A stretch of DNA of 64,000 nt. Origin: an uncultured Anaerolineales bacterium. Lineage in GTDB: Bacteria; Chloroflexota; Anaerolineae; Anaerolineales; UBA6663. Below are positions 29,504-38,865 of the stretch, piece after piece. Numbering within the stretch: the stretch's first letter is position 1; each line of letters opens with the position of its first letter. The notes under the pieces are model-generated. The model saw only the letters and a list, made by a program, of their open reading frames with translations. It was not told where the DNA came from and did no database searches. The stretch lies in the NCBI GenBank assembly GCA_964608265.1, contig CAZSNP010000016.1, positions 5,566 through 69,565 on the forward strand, in the 5' to 3' direction. The translations under genes were made by a program, and so were the position numbers.

Positions 29504-30658
29504 CTAAAGGCCGGCGGCGACGCGCCGATAAGCCTCGAGCAGGTGCTGGGCCGACGCGTGCCAGGTGAACCCCGCCGCGCGCCGGAAACCGCGGGCGATG
29601 AGGTCGGCGCGCGCGCCGTCGTCGGTGAGGGCGCGGTGGAGCGCCGCGGCCAGAGCGCGCACATCCGTGGGGGAAACGAGAAGGGCGGCGTCGCCCGCCA
29701 CCTCGGGCAGGCAGGCGGCGGTGGACGTGACCACCGGTGTGCCGCAGGCCATCGCCTCGAGCAGCGGCAGCCCGAAGCCCTCGTACAGCGAAGGGTAGGC
29801 GACGACCCGCGCCGCCGAGTACAGCGCGGGCAGATCGGCCTCCGCCACAAAGCCGGGGAAGAGCACGCGGCCAGCCAGCTTCAGCCGTTCGACCTCGGCG
29901 AAGATCGAATCAAACAGCCAACCCCTGCCGCCGGCGATGACCAACTTCACCTCGGCGATTTGCGCGGACAGATCGGCGAAGGCTTGCATGAGGCGGACGA
30001 GGTTTTTGCGTGGCTGTAACGTGCTGACCGAGAGGATGAATGGCTCCGCGCCGAGGCGATACCGGGCGCGCACGGCGGCCAGCCGCGCCGGGTCGGTCAC
30101 CGGATAGAACGTGGCCTCCACGCCGGGGTAGAGCACGGTCACCTTCGCGGCCGGTGTCCGGTACAGCTCAATCAAGTCGTCCTTCGTGGCCTGTGAGTCG
30201 GCGAGGATGTGATCGGCGCGGGCGACTGAGCGCGGGACGACGGTGTTGAGGTAACTCAGCAGCGTCGGCGCAGCCGAGCCGGGATCGCGCACGAAGGACA
30301 GATCGTGCACGGTCAGCAGCGTGCGCGTGCGGCCCGCGACGGGCGGCAATGTGAAGTCGGGCGAATGAAAGACATCCAGCGGGCCGGTGATCGTCTGCAC
30401 CGGCAGCGGCAGCCGGGCGCGGTGCCAGATGCGCGCCAGCCAGATATCGTGAAAGGGCAGGGCTCTGAGGCGGAAATTGGCTGGCAGCGGATTGGGTAAC
30501 GGATGTAACGGAGGCCGGGCTGCGTAGAAGAGGCGGTAGTGATTGTGGTGATCAGCGGCGCTCAATGCGCGCAGCAACTCGCGCGTGTAGCGGCCGATGC
30601 CCGCGCCCTGCGCCACCGCCGAGGTCACGTCAATGCCGATGCGCAATCCGCCGTGCAC
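29504..30658 (-). CDS. Glycosyltransferase family 4
   Basis: [44 protein letters not shown]. Confidence 0.95.
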
Positions 30659-30716: not shown

Positions 30717-31121
30717 CTAGCCTTCAGTCACCGGGGGCGCTTTGGGGCCGAGCGCGCGCCGCACGTGGTCAATCAGCGTCTTCGAGTTGATGGGCTTGGT
30801 GAGGAAGGCATCCGCCCCGGCCGATTGGCTTTCCATCCGCGTCTTCTGGTCGGCCTTGGCGGTGAGGATGACGACGGGGAGGTTCTTGATGATTTCGCTG
30901 GAGCGCACTTTGCGCAGGATGGTGAAGCCGTTGATGTCGGGCATCATCAGGTCGAGCAGGATCAAATCCGGCGTGCGGCCCTCCAGCCATTCCAGCGCTT
31001 CCTGGCCCGACAACACCGAATGAGCTTCGAAGCCGGCGTGCGACAACATCATCCGCATGATGTTCGCCAGGTCGGGATCGTCGTCTACGATGAGGATGGT
31101 GGGTTTAGTGTCGGCCGACAT
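30717..31121 (-). CDS. Single-domain response regulator
   Basis: ILIVDDD, phospho-Asp in LLDLMMP, ILTA, FLTKP. Confidence 0.93.
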   Translation of the reverse strand: MSADTKPTILIVDDDPDLANIMRMMLSHAGFEAHSVLSGQEALEWLEGRTPDLILLDLMMPDINGFTILRKVRSSEIIKNLPVVILTAKADQKTRMESQSAGADAFLTKPINSKTLIDHVRRALGPKAPPVTEG

Positions 31122-31641
31122 CGCGATAGGTCCAGTAGCGGTTGACGAAAAAGTTCCAGAACAGCAGCGCGCCCACCCGAGTCATGAGCGCGAGGTTTCC
31201 AGCGACGTTGAATTGTAATGCGGCGAGGGCCGTCGCGCCAATCAGACCGCGCCAAATCCCCAACGCAATCGAAAACACCGGCGCGCCGATGAGCAGGCCG
31301 GCCACGCTCACAATCGCGAACTTCGTGAGCTTTTTGGCCTGATTAGCTTCCCTGGCTTCGGGATAAATCCACATATAGTTCCACAGGAAGTTGCTGAGGA
31401 CAGCCAGACAAAACGAAAACGATTGCTCGATGACTTCGGGATGGCCGGTGAAGTAAGCGCCGATCTGCGGCAAACCGGCGGGCAGGAGATTCAGCGCCAC
31501 CCACGGGCCGATGAACAGCGCGTGCATGAGGTTGAAACTGCCGAGGTCAACGGCGAAGCCAACAGCGCCGACCATCAAGAACTTGATGAAGCGCTTGCGT
31601 TCTTTGGGCTGACTACGCGCCAGGGTGACGATACGGGTCAA
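31105..31641 (-). CDS. GtrA-family membrane protein (lipid-linked sugar flippase-like)
   Basis: RFIKFLMVG...D, SNFLWNYMWIY, WNFFVNRYWTY. TTG start at 31641 with a GGAG SD; alternative starts at 31671 or 31695. Confidence 0.85.
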   Translation of the reverse strand: MTRIVTLARSQPKERKRFIKFLMVGAVGFAVDLGSFNLMHALFIGPWVALNLLPAGLPQIGAYFTGHPEVIEQSFSFCLAVLSNFLWNYMWIYPEAREANQAKKLTKFAIVSVAGLLIGAPVFSIALGIWRGLIGATALAALQFNVAGNLALMTRVGALLFWNFFVNRYWTYRDVGRH

Positions 31642-33064
31642 CGGCTTTGTCTCCGCCAGCGATGATAGCATGAAGGACTCCGAGCCACGCGCCAAGCAAT
31701 AAATCGGTGTTGTTGACGTGCAGGTTGTCTACCAGATGATGCGTGAGCAAGTGCGCCCACACGCCCAACAACCCCAGCGCCAACCCGCGCCGCACACCCT
31801 CCGACCGGCGGAGGGTGCGAAACGTAAGGATAACGACCCACAGCCACAAACCCCCATAGGCGGCTAGTCCTACCAGCCCGGTCTCGGCCCACATGTGCAG
31901 GTAGATATTGTGGGCGTGCCCGAGCGCGTTTGGCCAGTTGATCAGGCGATACTGTTCGTACGCGCCCACGTAGTTTCCCAGCCCCACGCCCCACCACGGG
32001 TTGGCCTCGATCATGTTTTGCGCGGCCTGCCAGTGCGCCAGCCGCTCCACCAGCGCGAAGTTCGCATCGTTGATGTTGATCCCGCGCACATCGCTGACAT
32101 TGATGAAGTCGGTGATGTTGGCCAGCCGGGCGGTGACACTGGCCGGGAGCAGGCCGGTTGCCGCGAGGGCAGCCACCGCGCCGATGACGCCGAGCACCAG
32201 CCCGGCCCCCAGCCACAGCCGCCGGGGCAGACACATCGCCAGCACAATGATGGCCGCGCCGACCCCCAGCCACGCGCCGCGCGAAGCCGAGACGTAAATC
32301 GCGATGACGAGCAAGCCCGCCAGAAACAAGTAGCAGGCAGCAAGCAGCAGATTCCGCCAGCGATGCCGCTCCTGAAAGGCAATGCTCAGGTGGGCCAGGG
32401 CCAACCCGGCGGCCACCGGCCAGATCAACCCGAGGAAACCGCCGAAGGGATTGGGTTGCTCGAATGAGCCGTAAGCGCGGAAGAGGCCCTCGGCGACCTC
32501 GAAGCTCTCCGGGCCGGCGCCACGCCAGCGCCACTGCCACAGCCCCACGCCCGCCTGCAACACGCCCGAGAGCAGGATCGCGCCGATGACCCACCGCAAC
32601 CGGCCACGCTTTGCTTCGGAATATGTGATGATGAGGACGAAGGCGACCTCGATCCACTTGATGACTTCATTGAGTCCATCGCGCCATGCAGCGGCCTGAA
32701 AGAGCGACAGCGCGCCCGCCCCGATCCACACAGACAAGGGAAAAAGCAACTGAAGTTTAGGGAGGGTGATTTCACGCCGCAACGCGCCGCGCAGCAGCCA
32801 GCCGGCCAGGGCCAGCGCGAAAAAAATCTGGCCGAAGTCGTAGAGCGGGCCGACGCGCCCGGTCGCGGCCAGGTAAGCGCGCGTCGGCCCCAGCACAATC
32901 GCCGCGCCGAGGCCGATGGCCGGTTCCCGGATCGAAAGGGCCACCACCGCGCCGCCCACGATGAGCACGGCGCTGTATTCGATTGGCAGAAATGCGATGA
33001 GCAGGCTGCCAGGGAGTGCGGCTGCCAGGAGGTAATTGGCGATTGGTAATTGCGCCCGCGTCAC
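31613..33064 (-). CDS. O-antigen ligase / Wzy-family membrane protein
   Basis: RAYGSFEQPNPFGG, SASRGAWLG, ERLAHW, GVGLGNY, HAHNIYL, HHLVD. Confidence 0.92.
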   Translation of the reverse strand: MTRAQLPIANYLLAAALPGSLLIAFLPIEYSAVLIVGGAVVALSIREPAIGLGAAIVLGPTRAYLAATGRVGPLYDFGQIFFALALAGWLLRGALRREITLPKLQLLFPLSVWIGAGALSLFQAAAWRDGLNEVIKWIEVAFVLIITYSEAKRGRLRWVIGAILLSGVLQAGVGLWQWRWRGAGPESFEVAEGLFRAYGSFEQPNPFGGFLGLIWPVAAGLALAHLSIAFQERHRWRNLLLAACYLFLAGLLVIAIYVSASRGAWLGVGAAIIVLAMCLPRRLWLGAGLVLGVIGAVAALAATGLLPASVTARLANITDFINVSDVRGININDANFALVERLAHWQAAQNMIEANPWWGVGLGNYVGAYEQYRLINWPNALGHAHNIYLHMWAETGLVGLAAYGGLWLWVVILTFRTLRRSEGVRRGLALGLLGVWAHLLTHHLVDNLHVNNTDLLLGAWLGVLHAIIAGGDKAVDPYRHPGA

Positions 33065-33108: not shown

Positions 33109-34065
33109 CTATCTCCCTATGACCCCACGGAAGTATTCGATCGTCGTCGTAAGCCCGTCTTCGAGTTCGATCTTCGGCTCCCAGCCGAGCACGGCCCTGG
33201 CCTTGGAGATATCGGGGCGGCGTTGCTGCGGGTCGCCCGGGGTGCGGCCCTCGCCGACGAAGCGCAGCCCGCCGGGGTTGCCGGTGATGGTGTTGACGAT
33301 CTCGGCGAACTCGCGGATGCTCATCTCGCGCGGGTTGCCGATGTTGGTCGGCAGGGTCTCGTTGGACATCAGCAGACGATAGATGCCCTCGACCAGATCA
33401 GACACGTAGCAGAAGCTGCGCGTCTGGGTGCCGTCGCCGTACACGGTGAGCGGCTCGCCGCGCAGCGCCTGCCCGACGAAGTTTGGCACCACCCGCCCAT
33501 CATCCAACTGCATACGCGGGCCATACGTGTTGAAGATGCGGACGATGCGCGTATCCACGCCGTGCGTGCGATGGTACGCCATGGTCAGCGCCTCGGCGAA
33601 GCGTTTGGCCTCGTCGTACACCGAGCGCGGCCCGACCGGGTCGACGTGCCCCCAGTACGTTTCCTTCTGCGGATGTTCGAGCGGGTCGCCGTACACCTCC
33701 GAGGTCGAGGCGAGCATGAAGCGCGCGCCCTTGGCCTTGGCGACCCCGAGCGCGTTCAGCGTGCCAAGCGCGCCAACCTTGAGCGTTTGGATGGGCAGTT
33801 GCAGGTAACCGGTCGGCGCGGTTTTGCTCGGGCTGGCCGGCGAGGCCCAGTGCATCACCACCTCAATCGGCCCGTCAATGTAAATGTGCTCGGAGACGTT
33901 GTGCTTGATGAAGCGAAAGTCATCGCGGCCGGCGAGGTGCTGGATGTTGCGGGTGCTGCCGGTGATGAGGTTGTCCATCGCGATGACGCTGTGGCCCTCG
34001 GCCAGAAGCCGATCGCACAAGTGCGACCCGATGAAACCCGCCCCGCCGGTGATGAGGATGCGCAT
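33109..34065 (-). CDS. UDP-glucuronate decarboxylase (UDP-xylose synthase)-like NAD-dependent epimerase/dehydratase
   Basis: [72 protein letters not shown]. Confidence 0.93.
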
Positions 34066-34088
34066 GGGAAACCCTTCGTCTTTTGAAT

Positions 34089-34122
34089 AGACCTTCGGGG
34101 TTTCCAAAAACCCCGAAGGTCT
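34089..34122. repeat. REP-like palindrome (15-bp stem)
   Basis: AGACCTTCGGGGTTT-CCAA-AAACCCCGAAGGTCT; same family as 14426-14457. Confidence 0.85.
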
Positions 34123-34146: not shown

Positions 34147-37100
34147 TCACGCAGCCTCGCGGCCAGCGCGCTGGATCAGGGCCAGCGCCAGCATGAACAC
34201 AAACGCCAAATCAACAAGAAAGAATGAATGATCGACCAGCCCGTGCGCGAGCATATCGGCGACGAGGGCCATCAGACCGATGGGTAGAGGCGACGCAGGC
34301 AGCGTCCGGGCGGCACGCCAAAACGCGGCCATCAACCACACGCCGCACCCGAAGCCGAGCACGCCGAGACGGCTGAGGAAATCCAGCACGATGTTGTGCG
34401 GGTGCGAGAGGTTGGGCTCCTGCCACGCAGCGGGCAGGATGTAGAAGCCGCGATACGCATACAGAAAGTTATCCGGGCCGACGCCGAGCAACGGGTGATC
34501 GAGAAACATCCGCCACGCCGAGGCCCACAGGTTGATGCGGAAGAAACCGGTGCCGGATTGCGGGTCGAGGGCGCCGGCGAAGCGCGGTAGCTGCGCGAGG
34601 AAGGGCAGGGCGATGACGGCCAGCGCCAGGCCCGCCGCCACCATCCCCGCGCCGCGCCGCCCCTGCCAGCCGATGATGATCACCGCCAGCGCCGCCGGAA
34701 TCCCGAGCAGCAGCGCCCCGCGTGAAAAGCTGAGGACGATTGCGAGGCCCATCACCAGCGAAGCGAGGCCGTGGAGCAGCCGGCGCAGTGGCGGCGTCGC
34801 CGTGCGTGGCGGCCCGATGACGACGACGGCCAGCGCCAGCGGCAGCGCGCGGCCCAAGTAGAGGCCGAGGTTGTTCGGCGAGCCATACACGCTGCGGATG
34901 CGGGCCACGCCCTCTTCGGTGACGATGAGGTTGGTCTGCGTCGCAAATTGATACAAACCGATGGCGGCCACCAGCACCGCGCCGAGGACGAAGAAGTCGG
35001 CGATGCGCCAAAGAGCTTTTGCGTCGAGCGGAGTGGCGCGGAGTAGAAAGTAGAAGGTTGCCGATCCCAGGAGGACGGTGCGGAATTCGTATACGGCCAC
35101 CGCGCGTTGCGCGGCGTTGGCCGTGCTCAGCGCTGAGACAGTGAGTAGGGCGACGACGCCCCAATCAATAAAGGTCAGCCGTGGACGCTGCCACGCAGCG
35201 CGCTGGCGCAGCAGGGCCGGGCCGTGGCGCACCATCCAGGCGCTGAAGGTCAACCACACCGAGAATTCGAGCACCGACGCGCCGCGCTCCCACAACATCC
35301 GCGGAAAGAGGAAGAACGGGATGAAGACGGCGATGAATGCCAGCGCGAGATCGAGGCGCGCATAGAACAGGATGAAAAGCGCTAGCAGCGCCACGACGGC
35401 GAGGACGAACGACGGCGAAAAGTAAAACAGCCCGGCGCTGAACGCGGTGACGAGGATGGGGACGGCATCGCCGAAGCGACGGGTGAAGGCGGTGACTTGT
35501 GTGTCGAAGGCGAGCCAGGCCGAAAGAAACACGAGGGTCGAAAGAAAAAACGTTGACAGCACCTGGCCCGTGTCGCCGAGGCGCTGCCACAACGAAGAAA
35601 GGCGCTGGCCGACGCCCCCCCACGCCAGCGCGCGGCCCGACCACCCCAGGCCCGCCGCGCTCAACACGCCCAGCGCGAGCAATCCGCCGACGGCGAGATG
35701 GAAATCGCCCGCCGGCAACCGACGCCCCACGCTGAAACCCGCCATCGCCCACTGATCCCACCCGCGCTCCGGCTCGATGATGGCCGTGTGCGCGACGTTC
35801 GGGTCGAGGCCCGAGGCGATGGGGATGACGGCGACCTCCGGCTTGAGGGTGGGCGAGGTGAGGACGAGATACGCGCCGCGCCCGTCACGCGGCAGCAGGT
35901 TGGCGGGCGCGCCGTCCACCGTCACGTACAGATAACCGCGATAGTCGCCGCGCCGCACGCGCAGGCCGAGGTCGCTGCCGTGAAATGCAAACGTGAGTCG
36001 CGCACTGGAGAATTGTTCGGGGATGTCGGCCCCGAGGTCGGAGAACTTCCACGCACCGGTGTATTGCGCAAACGGGTTGGGCGCGGGATAGTTTCCGGGC
36101 GGCGCGGTTACGGGTGATTGGAGGTTGGAGAGCGATTGGCCCAGCGGCGTGAGTTGATTGTTCGTGTCGGCGAGGGCGAAACCCCAGCGCGGGTCGCCGG
36201 CGGGCGCGCTGGGTTGATAGTTCTCGAGCGCCAACGGCCCGGCCCACGGCCACTCCTGCGCGGCGCGTTCGTAAGCGCTGCGGGTGTATTCAACTTGTTG
36301 TTCGGGTGTGGCTTTGCCCCAGGGCGAATCCAATGTGTTCCATCCAAAATTGCTCGCCCAAAGCTGCTTATGTCCATCGCCGTTGCGCACCATCACCTCG
36401 CGCAGGAGCGTGAAGCGCGAGAAGTTGAGGAGGTGCGCATCGGCCTGCCGATCATCGGGCCCGGTGTAGAAGCCGTACGGCTTGCCCGCCGCCGCATCGA
36501 AGGAGTGATGCGCGCCGAGGTCGTACAGTTGCTGCAGATAGAGCAGGTCGCTGATGTTCTCCGGCCCGGCCTCGGTGGTGGGCGCGAGCGCGGCGGCAAG
36601 GACGGTGGCGGTCGGGTCGGCGGCGTGGATGGCGGCGTAGGCTGCCTGTAGCAGCGCACCGTACCCCGCCGCAGACGGCGGCCCGCCCCACGCCGCGCTC
36701 AGGTTAGGCTCATCACCGATTTGGTAAACATCAATCCGGTCGCGATAGCGCGCGGCGAACTCGGCCACCTGTGCGCCATAATAGTCGGCAGGGTGCTCAA
36801 CGGAGGCGGACAGCACGGCGATAATGCTTTTGCCGCGGGCCGACACTGTGTTTACGATGAGGTCGTAGCCGTCATACGGGCTGCGTTTGTGAACGACACC
36901 GGGCGGATCAATGACAAATCCGTGCCGCAGCCAGCCGAAAGACGGCAGGCGATCGAGCGCCGTGTTGATCTCAGCCTCGCTCGGCGCGGGGAAGGCGACA
37001 TTGACTGCGCGCAGATTGGCCGGGCGTGGGTCCAGTGAGGGATCGGGCAGGCCGTCCACCGCTCCGAAGACCTGCGCGCCGCGTTGATGCAGGACGGCGG

Positions 37101-37161
37101 CCAGCCCGAGCAGCGAGCCACACAGCAACACCGCGCTGAGTATAAAGAGGACTCGTTTCAT
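34147..37161 (-). CDS. Fusion protein: N-terminal clan GH-A-like glycosidase domain, beta-sandwich domain, then multi-pass O-antigen ligase/Wzy domain
   Basis: YQIGDEPN, AYAAIHAADP.ATVL, FDAAAGKPYGF and LWASNFGW in the N-half. RIRSVYGSPNNLG, SFSRGA, RINLW, GVGPDNF, HPHN and AHGLVD in the C-half. Confidence 0.88.
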   Translation of the reverse strand: MKRVLFILSAVLLCGSLLGLAAVLHQRGAQVFGAVDGLPDPSLDPRPANLRAVNVAFPAPSEAEINTALDRLPSFGWLRHGFVIDPPGVVHKRSPYDGYDLIVNTVSARGKSIIAVLSASVEHPADYYGAQVAEFAARYRDRIDVYQIGDEPNLSAAWGGPPSAAGYGALLQAAYAAIHAADPTATVLAAALAPTTEAGPENISDLLYLQQLYDLGAHHSFDAAAGKPYGFYTGPDDRQADAHLLNFSRFTLLREVMVRNGDGHKQLWASNFGWNTLDSPWGKATPEQQVEYTRSAYERAAQEWPWAGPLALENYQPSAPAGDPRWGFALADTNNQLTPLGQSLSNLQSPVTAPPGNYPAPNPFAQYTGAWKFSDLGADIPEQFSSARLTFAFHGSDLGLRVRRGDYRGYLYVTVDGAPANLLPRDGRGAYLVLTSPTLKPEVAVIPIASGLDPNVAHTAIIEPERGWDQWAMAGFSVGRRLPAGDFHLAVGGLLALGVLSAAGLGWSGRALAWGGVGQRLSSLWQRLGDTGQVLSTFFLSTLVFLSAWLAFDTQVTAFTRRFGDAVPILVTAFSAGLFYFSPSFVLAVVALLALFILFYARLDLALAFIAVFIPFFLFPRMLWERGASVLEFSVWLTFSAWMVRHGPALLRQRAAWQRPRLTFIDWGVVALLTVSALSTANAAQRAVAVYEFRTVLLGSATFYFLLRATPLDAKALWRIADFFVLGAVLVAAIGLYQFATQTNLIVTEEGVARIRSVYGSPNNLGLYLGRALPLALAVVVIGPPRTATPPLRRLLHGLASLVMGLAIVLSFSRGALLLGIPAALAVIIIGWQGRRGAGMVAAGLALAVIALPFLAQLPRFAGALDPQSGTGFFRINLWASAWRMFLDHPLLGVGPDNFLYAYRGFYILPAAWQEPNLSHPHNIVLDFLSRLGVLGFGCGVWLMAAFWRAARTLPASPLPIGLMALVADMLAHGLVDHSFFLVDLAFVFMLALALIQRAGREAA

Positions 37162-37230: not shown

Positions 37231-38865
37231 TCACTGTCCCCAGTCGATCTCCGTCGCCAGGCCATCGCCCGTGAGTTGCTGGCTGGCGCCCGTCTCGGCA
37301 TCCACCAGCCACACATTGCCTTGATAGAGGATAGCGACCAGCCGGCCATCGGGTGACCAGGCCGGCGTCGTGCCCGCGTCGAGGCCCGGCTGATCGGCCG
37401 GCGGGAAGAGGGCGCGGATGTTGCTGCCGTCGCGATCCATCACCGTGAGCGTATAGCGGCTGAAGGGCGAGGTGTTGGGGTCAACGGCCTGCAGATAAGC
37501 CACCCGCTCGCCGGTCGGCGACGGCGCCGGGTTCGAGTAGATGCCGGCGCGCGGCACGAGGGTCAGCGACAGGCTGGCGAGCGAGGACAGTGCCGTCACA
37601 TCGAAGACCGGCGAGTCTTCGGCTAACTCAATCCCCAGCGGCGCGCCGTGGGTGATGGTGTACAACCATTCGTTGTCGGCCCAGCGCAGCGTCGGGTACC
37701 ACGCCCAGTTGCTGCGCGAGTTGTACGCCACGAAGCTCGCCAGCTCGGTGCGACTGAACGTCGTCAAATCCACCACCCCCACCGAGTCGGTGCGGGCATA
37801 CGCCATCCGCAGCCCGTCGGGCGCGAAGGCGTAACCGGTGCCCCACCAGCCATACGCGCCGCCGGCGTTCGTATCCACAACCTGCACCGGGTTGAACTCG
37901 AGGCGGCGCGTGCGGGGATTGGTCCCCCACGTCAGCAGCCACAGGTCGTTGTTCGCCTGCCAGTCCACCGGGCCGCGCGGGTTCTTCTCGGCGGTCGAAT
38001 AAGCAATGGTGGGCGAAATCGTTTGGGCCGGCGACCATTCGGCGTAAAGGGTATTGCTCACCGGGATGCTCAACGGTTTGCCGCCGAGCGCGGTGGTGAG
38101 GGTGAAGACCGACAGCGTATTGAAGACGCGGTCGAATTGGGGCGACTGCGTATCGGTGAAGTTGCGGCTAAAGAGCAGGGATTGGCCGTTGGGCGACAGG
38201 TCGAAGACGAAGCCGTCGAGGTCGCCGTTGAGGGTGAGGGGCGTGCGCCTGCTCGAGTCGCCGCGCATCACCCAGGCGTTGCCACCGCTGAGGTAGGCCA
38301 GCGTGCCGGTGATCGGCACTACCGTGAAGCTCTGCTGTGCGCCGACGAAGATGATCTCCGGAACCGGCTCGGCGAGGATGTCGCGCCTGATGGCGCTCCG
38401 GCTGACCTGCACGCCGTCTTCGAAGACGATGCGATACGTGATCTCTTCCCGGCCGTTGACGCCGGCCTGCTGCAAGCGACGCTCGCCGCGCGGCAGGCCC
38501 TCATTCGGGATGACGTCACTGCGATACGGGATGTCGTTTTGCTGGGTCTCGAACGTCTCGCGGATACGGGTGATGGTGACCGTTGCCCCGTCGGTCAAAC
38601 GCGTCTGCGGCCCGGGGTCGAGGCGATCCAGCTCCCCGACGCTGACGCCGGCCTGCGCCAAAAACTCACGCACCGTCGCCGTTTGCGAGAGCGCGAAGCG
38701 GCGCGTCTGCCCGTCAGCGATGACGGCAACGGTGATCGGGGCCGAGGTGGCGGGAGGCGCAGCCGGCGTCGGGACGAGGACAGCACAGGCCGAAAGCAGA
38801 AGGCCCAGAGCACAAGACGCACCGCTCAACCGATATGGGTGCGATTTGAATTGTGCCTTGAGCAT
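37231..38865 (-). CDS. Lipoprotein with DUF348-like and G5 domains and a TolB-like (PD40) beta-propeller
   Basis: Lipobox LLSAC; TVREFLAQAGV..GELD..P; G5 QAGVNGREEITYRIVFEDG...EPVPEIIFVG; propeller repeats SPNGQ, APDG, SPTG, AWSPDG. Confidence 0.85.
   Translation of the reverse strand: MLKAQFKSHPYRLSGASCALGLLLSACAVLVPTPAAPPATSAPITVAVIADGQTRRFALSQTATVREFLAQAGVSVGELDRLDPGPQTRLTDGATVTITRIRETFETQQNDIPYRSDVIPNEGLPRGERRLQQAGVNGREEITYRIVFEDGVQVSRSAIRRDILAEPVPEIIFVGAQQSFTVVPITGTLAYLSGGNAWVMRGDSSRRTPLTLNGDLDGFVFDLSPNGQSLLFSRNFTDTQSPQFDRVFNTLSVFTLTTALGGKPLSIPVSNTLYAEWSPAQTISPTIAYSTAEKNPRGPVDWQANNDLWLLTWGTNPRTRRLEFNPVQVVDTNAGGAYGWWGTGYAFAPDGLRMAYARTDSVGVVDLTTFSRTELASFVAYNSRSNWAWYPTLRWADNEWLYTITHGAPLGIELAEDSPVFDVTALSSLASLSLTLVPRAGIYSNPAPSPTGERVAYLQAVDPNTSPFSRYTLTVMDRDGSNIRALFPPADQPGLDAGTTPAWSPDGRLVAILYQGNVWLVDAETGASQQLTGDGLATEIDWGQ

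Follow-up and report, generated by a model that had tools for sequence, protein, structure and literature searches.

Why does a membrane glycosyltransferase carry a glycosidase-like domain whose catalytic nucleophile appears to be missing? The question is raised by one gene in a 64,000-nucleotide stretch of DNA from an uncultured Anaerolineales bacterium (contig CAZSNP010000016.1, assembly GCA_964608265.1), referred to below as the window. The gene lies at positions 34147..37161 on the minus strand, and its 1004-residue product joins a transmembrane anchor, a barrel resembling the endoglycosidase PslG, a beta-sandwich and a Wzy_C membrane domain, as delimited by translation of the open reading frame and by homologs. 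Our best explanation, to which we give a probability of roughly 0.55, is an intact WaaL/Wzy-type transferase of undecaprenyl-pyrophosphate (Und-PP)-linked glycans, with a PslG-derived ectodomain that binds glycan and does not hydrolyze it.

The reading frame is uninterrupted over 1004 codons, and all features of the window given here and below lie on the minus strand. A full-length AlphaFold2 (AF2) model based on a 115-sequence alignment has a predicted local distance difference test score (pLDDT) of 90.3 and a predicted template modeling score (pTM) of 0.80; for the ectodomain alone, with 55 locus-derived sequences, the values are 93.3 and 0.92. The chain begins with a signal-anchor helix (residues 2-30 in AF2, with a hydrophobic segment at 4-22; positions 37072..37158). 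Then comes a (beta/alpha)8 barrel of the type seen in glycoside hydrolase (GH) clan GH-A (residues ~45-345; 36127..37029), placed by PslG matches, the Foldseek structure search and DSSP strand assignments. Both models have the eight barrel strands, with strand 4 at residues 145-148, strand 7 at 266-272 and strand 8 at 307-312. The beta-sandwich that follows (residues ~350-482, AF2 strands 356-480; 35716..36114) resembles that of GH39 enzymes. The remainder is a helical membrane domain (residues 487-1004; 34150..35703) consisting of one extra transmembrane helix and a WaaL/Wzy-like bundle, as indicated by the AF2 helices and by matches to WaaL (PDB 7tpg); the Pfam Wzy_C region (PF04932) is at residues 799-938 (34348..34767). 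A sequence-only reading of the window had described this same anatomy of anchor, GH-A barrel, sandwich and ligase/polymerase domain, which AF2, Foldseek and the Pfam match bear out. Its coordinates for the open reading frame, and for the codons of the two residues on which the argument turns, E151 (36709-36711) and N271 (36349-36351), agree with the translation.

The AF2 helix and the hydrophobic segment place Lys2-Arg3 on the cytoplasmic side of the anchor. When the other AF2 helices are read alongside the known topology of WaaL, which we take to apply here, the predicted order is Lys-Arg inside, the first transmembrane helix, the ectodomain outside, one extra transmembrane helix and the WaaL-like bundle. 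In this model the barrel and the Wzy_C loop would share the outer face of the membrane, the large loop being at about 857-923 and followed by three helices.

The kinship of the ectodomain can be examined by sequence and by structure. Comparison with GH-A families, suggested at the outset as a check, gives PslG of Pseudomonas aeruginosa (GH39) as the best match in both respects. When the PDB is searched with Foldseek, PslG comes out on top (E 1.2e-19 with the ectodomain, TM-score ~0.55-0.60), then other GH39 structures, then GH79, GH5, GH30, GH53 and further clan GH-A barrels. With the single sequence, phmmer against the PDB aligns residues 127-280 to PslG at E 4.4e-5; with family profiles the match rises to E 4e-23 and 3.7e-29 and covers the whole barrel, with the residue pairing unchanged. 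PslG WNEPN is paired with GDEPN (starting at residue 149; 36703..36717), and PslG STEWGW with ASNFGW (starting at residue 269; 36340..36357). In a profile alignment to a second GH39 structure, 5jvk, TEIGWN is likewise paired with snfGWN of the fusion family. The PslG glutamates concerned, counted along the chain, are Glu165, paired with E151, and Glu276, paired with N271. In PslG, Glu165 is the acid/base and Glu276 the nucleophile, which was covalently trapped in a 2025 probe study (PMC11912335). Because STEWGW pairs with ASNFGW, the residue aligned with the nucleophile Glu276 is N271, which the AF2/DSSP assignment puts at the C-terminal end of strand 7; E151 comes directly after strand 4.

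Of the features of clan GH-A, the barrel with its appended sandwich and the acid/base Glu after strand 4 are present. The Asn before the acid/base and the nucleophile Glu of strand 7 are replaced, by D150 and N271, respectively. As judged from these alignments, the ectodomain is homologous to PslG and lacks two defining catalytic features of the clan, within a protein that passes the sequence tests for Wzy_C. Curated models add little: no Pfam GH model reaches its cut-off over the ectodomain, where the only match is CE2_N (PF17996, E 0.12), so that the sandwich is CE2_N-like only weakly, with precomputed matches in some homologs. Among NCBIfam models, the fusion has only sub-threshold matches to IctB and TfpM, and no curated model covers the N-terminal domain. 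The catalytically canonical relatives described below likewise reach no Pfam GH cut-off; for this reason membership in GH39 itself is not established, and the ectodomain may form a separate GH-A family. No paralog of the ectodomain was found within the 64-kb window.

Is the missing nucleophile peculiar to this gene? A word-indexed search, with 8000 candidates scored, finds 1452 database proteins matching the fusion at E<=1e-3. The best 120 of these are the close set; nearly all are ~1000 residues long with Wzy_C. A wider set adds 148 sequences listed among the 5279 matches at E<=1e-3 (327 at E<=1e-30) obtained when the ectodomain alone was searched exhaustively against representatives clustered at 50% identity. 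In the close set, position 271 is Asn in 77 sequences, His in 21, Gln in 9, Ser in 4, Ala in 3 and Asp in 3, and never Glu; D150, P152 and N153 are invariant, and E151 is found in 119 of the 120. The absence of a Koshland nucleophile, first noticed in the single sequence, is real and a trait of the family (0/120 of the close set with Glu271), and a survey of Glu versus Asn at this position also turns up Glu, in other branches of the wider set.

Those other branches are informative. Across the wider set, position 271 varies among Asn, His, Gln, Ser, Ala, Gly, Arg and Asp where Glu is absent. A canonical branch (26 representatives) has N-E-P-N, Glu271 and an invariant Trp313. In 24 representatives D-E-P-N is combined with Glu271, and in 10 D-Q-P-N is combined with Glu271, the acid/base having been lost instead. 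D-E-P-N or H-E-P-N without Glu271 characterizes a large branch that includes the window fusion. Finally, five lineages from species genomes have H-N at positions 150-151: L026 (Thermoflexus sp.), L027, L045, L051 and L061. Four of the five also have His271 and Ala or Thr at 313, so that both catalytic carboxylates are gone and the full-length protein is kept; L061 has Asp271 and Asn313. Read from the alignments, this is a graded series of erosion, with canonical, half-dead and fully dead states coexisting in one family. Since the derived branches have lost different catalytic pieces, hydrolysis does not appear to be what the family conserves.

A FastTree phylogeny of the barrel, calculated without the columns that were scored, requires 9-11 changes between Glu and other residues at 271, at least 6 of them forced by well-supported branches; the window fusion falls in a clade of 21 sequences, all without Glu271. 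The search of representatives also yields a likely starting point for the fusion. Eight sequences (P0216, P0219, P0247-P0251 and P0255) are complete proteins of 550-700 residues with the canonical NEP/E/W barrel, consisting of an N-terminal transmembrane helix, barrel, sandwich and a single C-terminal transmembrane helix with a basic tail. The completeness of these short proteins means that there is a PslG-like hydrolase that stands alone, with an anchor at each end. The fusion has the appearance of such a module joined to a Wzy_C gene, the short form being the likely precursor; the canonical branch also includes members fused to Wzy_C.

Further changes in the window fusion and its nearest relatives (P0002-P0008 and P0013) surround the active site. 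These proteins lack a W-x-x-I-E-P...W...W-D segment after strand 2 (W84, E88 and W96) as well as ~20 residues of the loop between strand 3 and helix 3, and Gly or Leu replaces W149. The site of the lost segments, residues 81-132 (36766-36921), is the least conserved stretch, with 25% mean identity; the rest of the family keeps them. At the other extreme, the half-barrel from beta4 to beta8 is the most conserved of all segments: its mean identity to the query is 69%, and 38% of its columns are conserved at >=90%, compared with 65% and 29% in the Wzy_C region. Residues of the kind that line a sugar cleft are invariant or nearly so: R79, E151, N153, E197, N202, Y229, N246, R249, W268, W274 and D323. 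Also near-invariant is the loop DDPRWGF, whose counterpart in the PslG alignment includes Arg331 and Asp332, two residues that hydrogen-bond the -1 sugar in PslG (PMC11912335). By this pattern of conservation, the ectodomain is under strong purifying selection and is not decaying.

The membrane half of the protein looks intact by the same kind of comparison. Wzy_C (PF04932) scores 76 bits against a cut-off of 31.7, and the solved WaaL structure from Cupriavidus metallidurans (7tpg) is matched by profiles with E-values of 1.4e-5 and 3.3e-10. Two invariant residues, R875 (34537-34539) and H922 (34396-34398), correspond in the alignment to R265 and H313 of chain 7tpg_B; for enzymes of this type, pyrophosphate binding by arginines and a catalytic role for a histidine have been proposed (PMC12800693). 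These alignments point to a GT-C enzyme of WaaL/Wzy type, at a level of resemblance that does not separate ligase, polymerase and protein O-glycosylase roles. An identity as IctB was rejected (TIGR00947, 63.7 bits against an equivalog cut-off of 366.4). Chloroflexota are increasingly regarded as monoderm (bioRxiv 10.1101/2025.08.19.671072); on this account an acceptor other than lipid A-core is likely.

A mechanism that would accommodate these observations is as follows. The Wzy_C domain most likely works at the outer face of the membrane, where it would pass an Und-PP-linked glycan to an acceptor, and the ectodomain would be held between two transmembrane helices on that same face. The ectodomain would descend from a membrane-anchored endoglycosidase of PslG type (GH39-like, clan GH-A), with four kinds of change along the way: Asn271 in place of the nucleophile Glu, Glu313 in place of the strand-8 Trp, Asp150 in place of the Asn of N-E-P and, in the subclade of the window fusion, the loss of two active-site loops. 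With nucleophile, Trp platform, Asn and two loops gone, classical double-displacement hydrolysis should not be possible. The cleft would instead bind a glycan chain, either product or acceptor, and present or retain it for the transferase without cutting. Membrane-associated PslG has been proposed as part of the Psl synthesis complex (PMC6813494), and in P. aeruginosa PslG and the Wzy polymerase PslJ are distinct polypeptides that belong to a single Wzx/Wzy-type machine (PMC13434223). Given that PslG is reported in a complex with PslJ, a covalent fusion of the two types would make biological sense.

How well does this explanation stand? The sequence-only reading had already proposed that the domain is a non-hydrolytic binding module, one that could select acceptors or set chain length, roles that would be conjectural here as well. 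In its favor, residue 271 varies, sister lineages have lost the acid/base or both carboxylates, and two active-site loops are gone from a domain that nevertheless seems to be under strong purifying selection; what keeps the proposal from being settled is Glu313, which stays as a candidate carboxylate. Glycan binding by the ectodomain, and its coupling to the transferase, we infer. Several points weigh against the explanation as a whole. The presumed loss of hydrolysis is read from sequence. E151 is kept in 76 of 80 nucleophile-less representatives (~95%). Glu313 (36223..36225), the first residue after strand 8, is at the C-terminal end of the strand that neighbors strand 7 and is a candidate relocated carboxylate; retention of E151 together with Glu313 in lineages with Asn, His or Gln at 271 could mean altered rather than lost chemistry. 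Finally, conserved positions are only modestly enriched on the catalytic face (12/72, compared with 5/71 and 13/158 elsewhere), so that some of the constraint may come from contacts with another protein. A restriction of conservation to the catalytic face was considered as proof of binding and dropped, the enrichment being modest.

The most serious competitor, which we regard as possible but doubtful, is that the ectodomain has kept enzymatic activity by rewiring its active site. Glu313 could act as nucleophile or base, or Asp150 and Glu151 could form a GH20-like substrate-assisted pair acting on a 2-acetamido sugar; the rewired domain would then trim or release the polymer of the fused transferase, as PslG does for Psl. 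The near-universal E151, in the close homologs as well as in the nucleophile-less representatives, and the D150 invariant among close homologs fit this proposal, as does the location of E151, 271 and 313 in the most conserved part of the protein. Position 313 adds more. In clan GH-A (as in GH5), the strand-8 Trp lines subsite -1, and the position is occupied by Trp in 26 of 26 canonical representatives. An acid is found there in 128 of 156 sequences with Asn, His or Gln at 271 (118 Glu and 10 Asp) versus 3 of 62 with Glu271; where residue 271 is Ala or Ser, residue 313 is mostly Ala. From this pattern, Glu313 may represent a carboxylate relocated to the adjacent strand.

The association between 271 and 313 is not significant once shared ancestry is removed, however: of 9 contrasts, ~3 agree with it in direction and none runs against it (median p 0.25-0.5). 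Co-variation of the two positions was thus dropped as proof of nucleophile migration, the raw association being strong and the phylogeny-corrected one not significant; it is kept as a lead only. D150 is older than the loss of the nucleophile, since 24 DEP representatives keep E271. It is therefore not a specific compensation, and the idea of a GH20-like pair is weakened. Position 271 can also be Ala, Ser, Gly or Arg, in many cases with Ala313, and some lineages lack E151 too (HN/H/A). In the subclade of the window fusion, moreover, the loops flanking the cleft are deleted.

A bolder idea, which we consider unlikely, is that the barrel is not inert and that, together with the GT-C domain, it makes up one composite unit for catalysis or processivity. 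This could come about by way of a carboxylate that has migrated to strand 8 (Glu313), or by the barrel acting as a glycosynthase-like or chain-holding module. Such a module would take the Und-PP-activated glycan or the growing chain. If it holds chains, it would be a built-in device for chain length or hand-over, replacing a separate Wzz/PCP in a monoderm.

The next alternative depends on the surroundings of the gene. Upstream of the fusion is a gene for an envelope protein with DUF348, G5 and PD40 beta-propeller domains by Pfam (37231..38865). Downstream are a UDP-glucuronate decarboxylase, or UDP-xylose synthase (UXS; 33109..34107), and a second, stand-alone Wzy_C protein of 483 residues (31613..33064; Pfam Wzy_C 91 bits) with 30% identity over 292 residues to the fusion's membrane domain. 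These are followed by a GtrA-like small membrane protein (31105..31695) and, at the end of the conserved run, a GT4 glycosyltransferase (29504..30658; Pfam Glycos_transf_1 and Glyco_transf_4). The GtrA-like gene was located by tblastn at the position of a gene in locus L002 (14205-14744; PF04138, GtrA_DPMS_TM), and its product has no NCBIfam match of its own. Synteny was scored in 83 loci, of which 68 have >=2.5 kb of upstream and 62 have >=4 kb of downstream sequence. In 61 of the 83, the G5-propeller gene precedes the fusion in the same orientation, mostly no more than 2 kb away, and in L002 it overlaps the start of the fusion by 4 bp. UXS is found downstream in 37 loci, the second Wzy_C in 34 and GT4 in 32; counting GtrA as well, the genes following the fusion recur in 31-37 of the 83.

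The UXS assignment comes from a match to human UXS1 (2b69) at E 1.7e-114, with the next family at 1e-45; against NCBIfam this SDR gene reaches no equivalog cut-off. This conserved neighbor suggests a xylose-containing glycan, and the locus probably makes an envelope glycan of that kind. One canonical-branch locus, L085, also has UXS and the second Wzy_C directly downstream of the fusion, from which it follows that the trio is old. The G5-propeller gene is absent from both canonical-branch loci examined; its partnership with the fusion is thus confined to the derived branch. A scan of the locus for promoters and terminators gave counts at chance level.

Two further genes can be seen near the fusion. 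A receiver-only response-regulator gene lies between the GtrA-like gene and GT4 (30717-31121); it is in the same placement in five loci (L005, L006, L010, L057 and L058), with matches elsewhere in three more, and EpsW, an exopolysaccharide regulator, is among the best of its weak relatives that have names. Some relatives of the fusion locus have a Macro-domain gene between the fusion and UXS (L002/L003, 11110-11649).

With these neighbors in view, the barrel might no longer bind sugar and might have a purely structural role, as a rigid scaffold or a surface on which a partner such as the G5-propeller protein or the periplasmic loop of Wzy_C could dock. The G5-PD40 gene on the same strand in 61 loci, sometimes with the 4-bp overlap, is what such a partnership would look like; conservation extending beyond the catalytic face and a full-length pTM of 0.80, suggestive of a fixed arrangement of domains, are also consistent with it. 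The near-invariance of the sugar-cleft-type residues, from R79 to D323, argues the other way. So do the fused members of the canonical branch that have no G5 neighbor, which imply that the fusion predates the G5 partnership. We consider the scaffold role improbable, more so than any of the proposals above. That the fusion is an artefact (assembly chimera, read-through or chance open reading frame) or a decaying pseudogene, for which nothing but the eroded catalytic residues would speak, is negligible in the face of the same architecture in more than 1000 database proteins and at least 588 species genomes, an uninterrupted frame, many invariant columns and confident AlphaFold models.

The non-hydrolytic transferase fusion preferred here is widespread. 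A scan of one genome per species confirms the fusion locus in at least 588 species genomes. Among the best 80 of these loci, the record titles of 79 name Chloroflexota lineages and one says only 'bacterium'; the lineages named are Anaerolineales, Promineifilaceae, Ardenticatenales, Thermoflexales and Aggregatilineales. In the best 120 database homologs, the named proteins are labeled 'O-antigen ligase family protein' or 'hypothetical protein' and come from Anaerolineales, Anaerolineae or Chloroflexi. The combination of hydrolase fold and transferase had been called unusual by the sequence-only reading. That view cannot be kept: besides the number of genomes, there are fused relatives that are catalytically canonical. 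The fusion appears to be a standard, near-universal gene of Anaerolineae, apparently undescribed rather than uncommon; full-text literature searches for this fusion returned nothing relevant and no paper describing it.

Several uses follow from this. Proteins labeled only 'O-antigen ligase family' or 'hypothetical', in at least 588 species-representative genomes, can now be flagged as containing an unannotated GH-A-like domain, and the neighboring genes suggest that Anaerolineae, a class with a poorly understood cell envelope, have a conserved locus for an envelope glycan. More generally, loci for polysaccharide synthesis very often encode a glycoside hydrolase (PslG, BcsZ and PelA are examples), and why synthesis should need one is still called elusive (PMC9075953). 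The fusion family is a natural Rosetta-stone joining of a PslG-like module and a Wzy_C enzyme. With canonical, half-dead and dead states across one class, the need for hydrolysis in synthesis becomes testable with natural variants.

Comparison with known systems puts the fusion in context. The closest solved relative of the ectodomain is PslG (PDB 5bx9, 4zn2 and 9g17), a GH39 endoglycosidase encoded in the Psl locus. The likeness includes an N-terminal membrane anchor, a (beta/alpha)8 barrel with sandwich, an acid/base Glu in x-E-P-N, and a gene in a Wzx/Wzy-type polysaccharide locus beside the Wzy_C polymerase PslJ. PslG itself, however, is a free-standing, active retaining hydrolase with the nucleophile Glu276 and with Asn164 before the acid/base. 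The fusion has Asn for the nucleophile and Asp for Asn164, lacks two cleft loops and is covalently joined to Wzy_C; the resemblance, at TM-score ~0.55-0.60, comes without a match to the Pfam GH39 model. A CAZy survey of Und-PP-sugar transferases places the O-antigen ligases in GT121 and mentions one bimodular case, WadA (GT121+GT25), and no fusion to a hydrolase fold (PMC10920833). WadA, from Brucella/Mesorhizobium, is similar in that a Wzy_C-type domain is fused to a second carbohydrate-active module concerned with the same glycan (PMC10920833), but that partner is a GT25 of cytoplasmic type, presumed active, whereas here it is an extracytoplasmic GH fold without a nucleophile. With WaaL (CAZy GT121; 7tpg/7tpj), and with the Wzy polymerases and the O-oligosaccharyltransferases PglL/PglS, which belong to the Wzy_C superfamily as well, the fusion shares a Wzy_C match above cut-off, the helix bundle and the invariant loop Arg and His. 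Unlike WaaL, it adds an extracytoplasmic N-terminal module of ~490 residues and one extra transmembrane helix, and it is found in a class regarded as monoderm without lipopolysaccharide, where a lipid A-core acceptor cannot be assumed.

For the fate of the barrel there are parallels of another kind. In chitinase-like lectins (GH18) and in the GH1 domains of Klotho, glycosidase barrels have been kept after loss of a carboxylate, with sugar binding surviving. The likeness is a glycosidase barrel under selection after losing a catalytic carboxylate. Those are soluble or signaling proteins of eukaryotes, whereas the barrel described here is joined to a bacterial GT-C transferase, in a family that, unlike them, contains canonical, half-dead and fully dead versions side by side.

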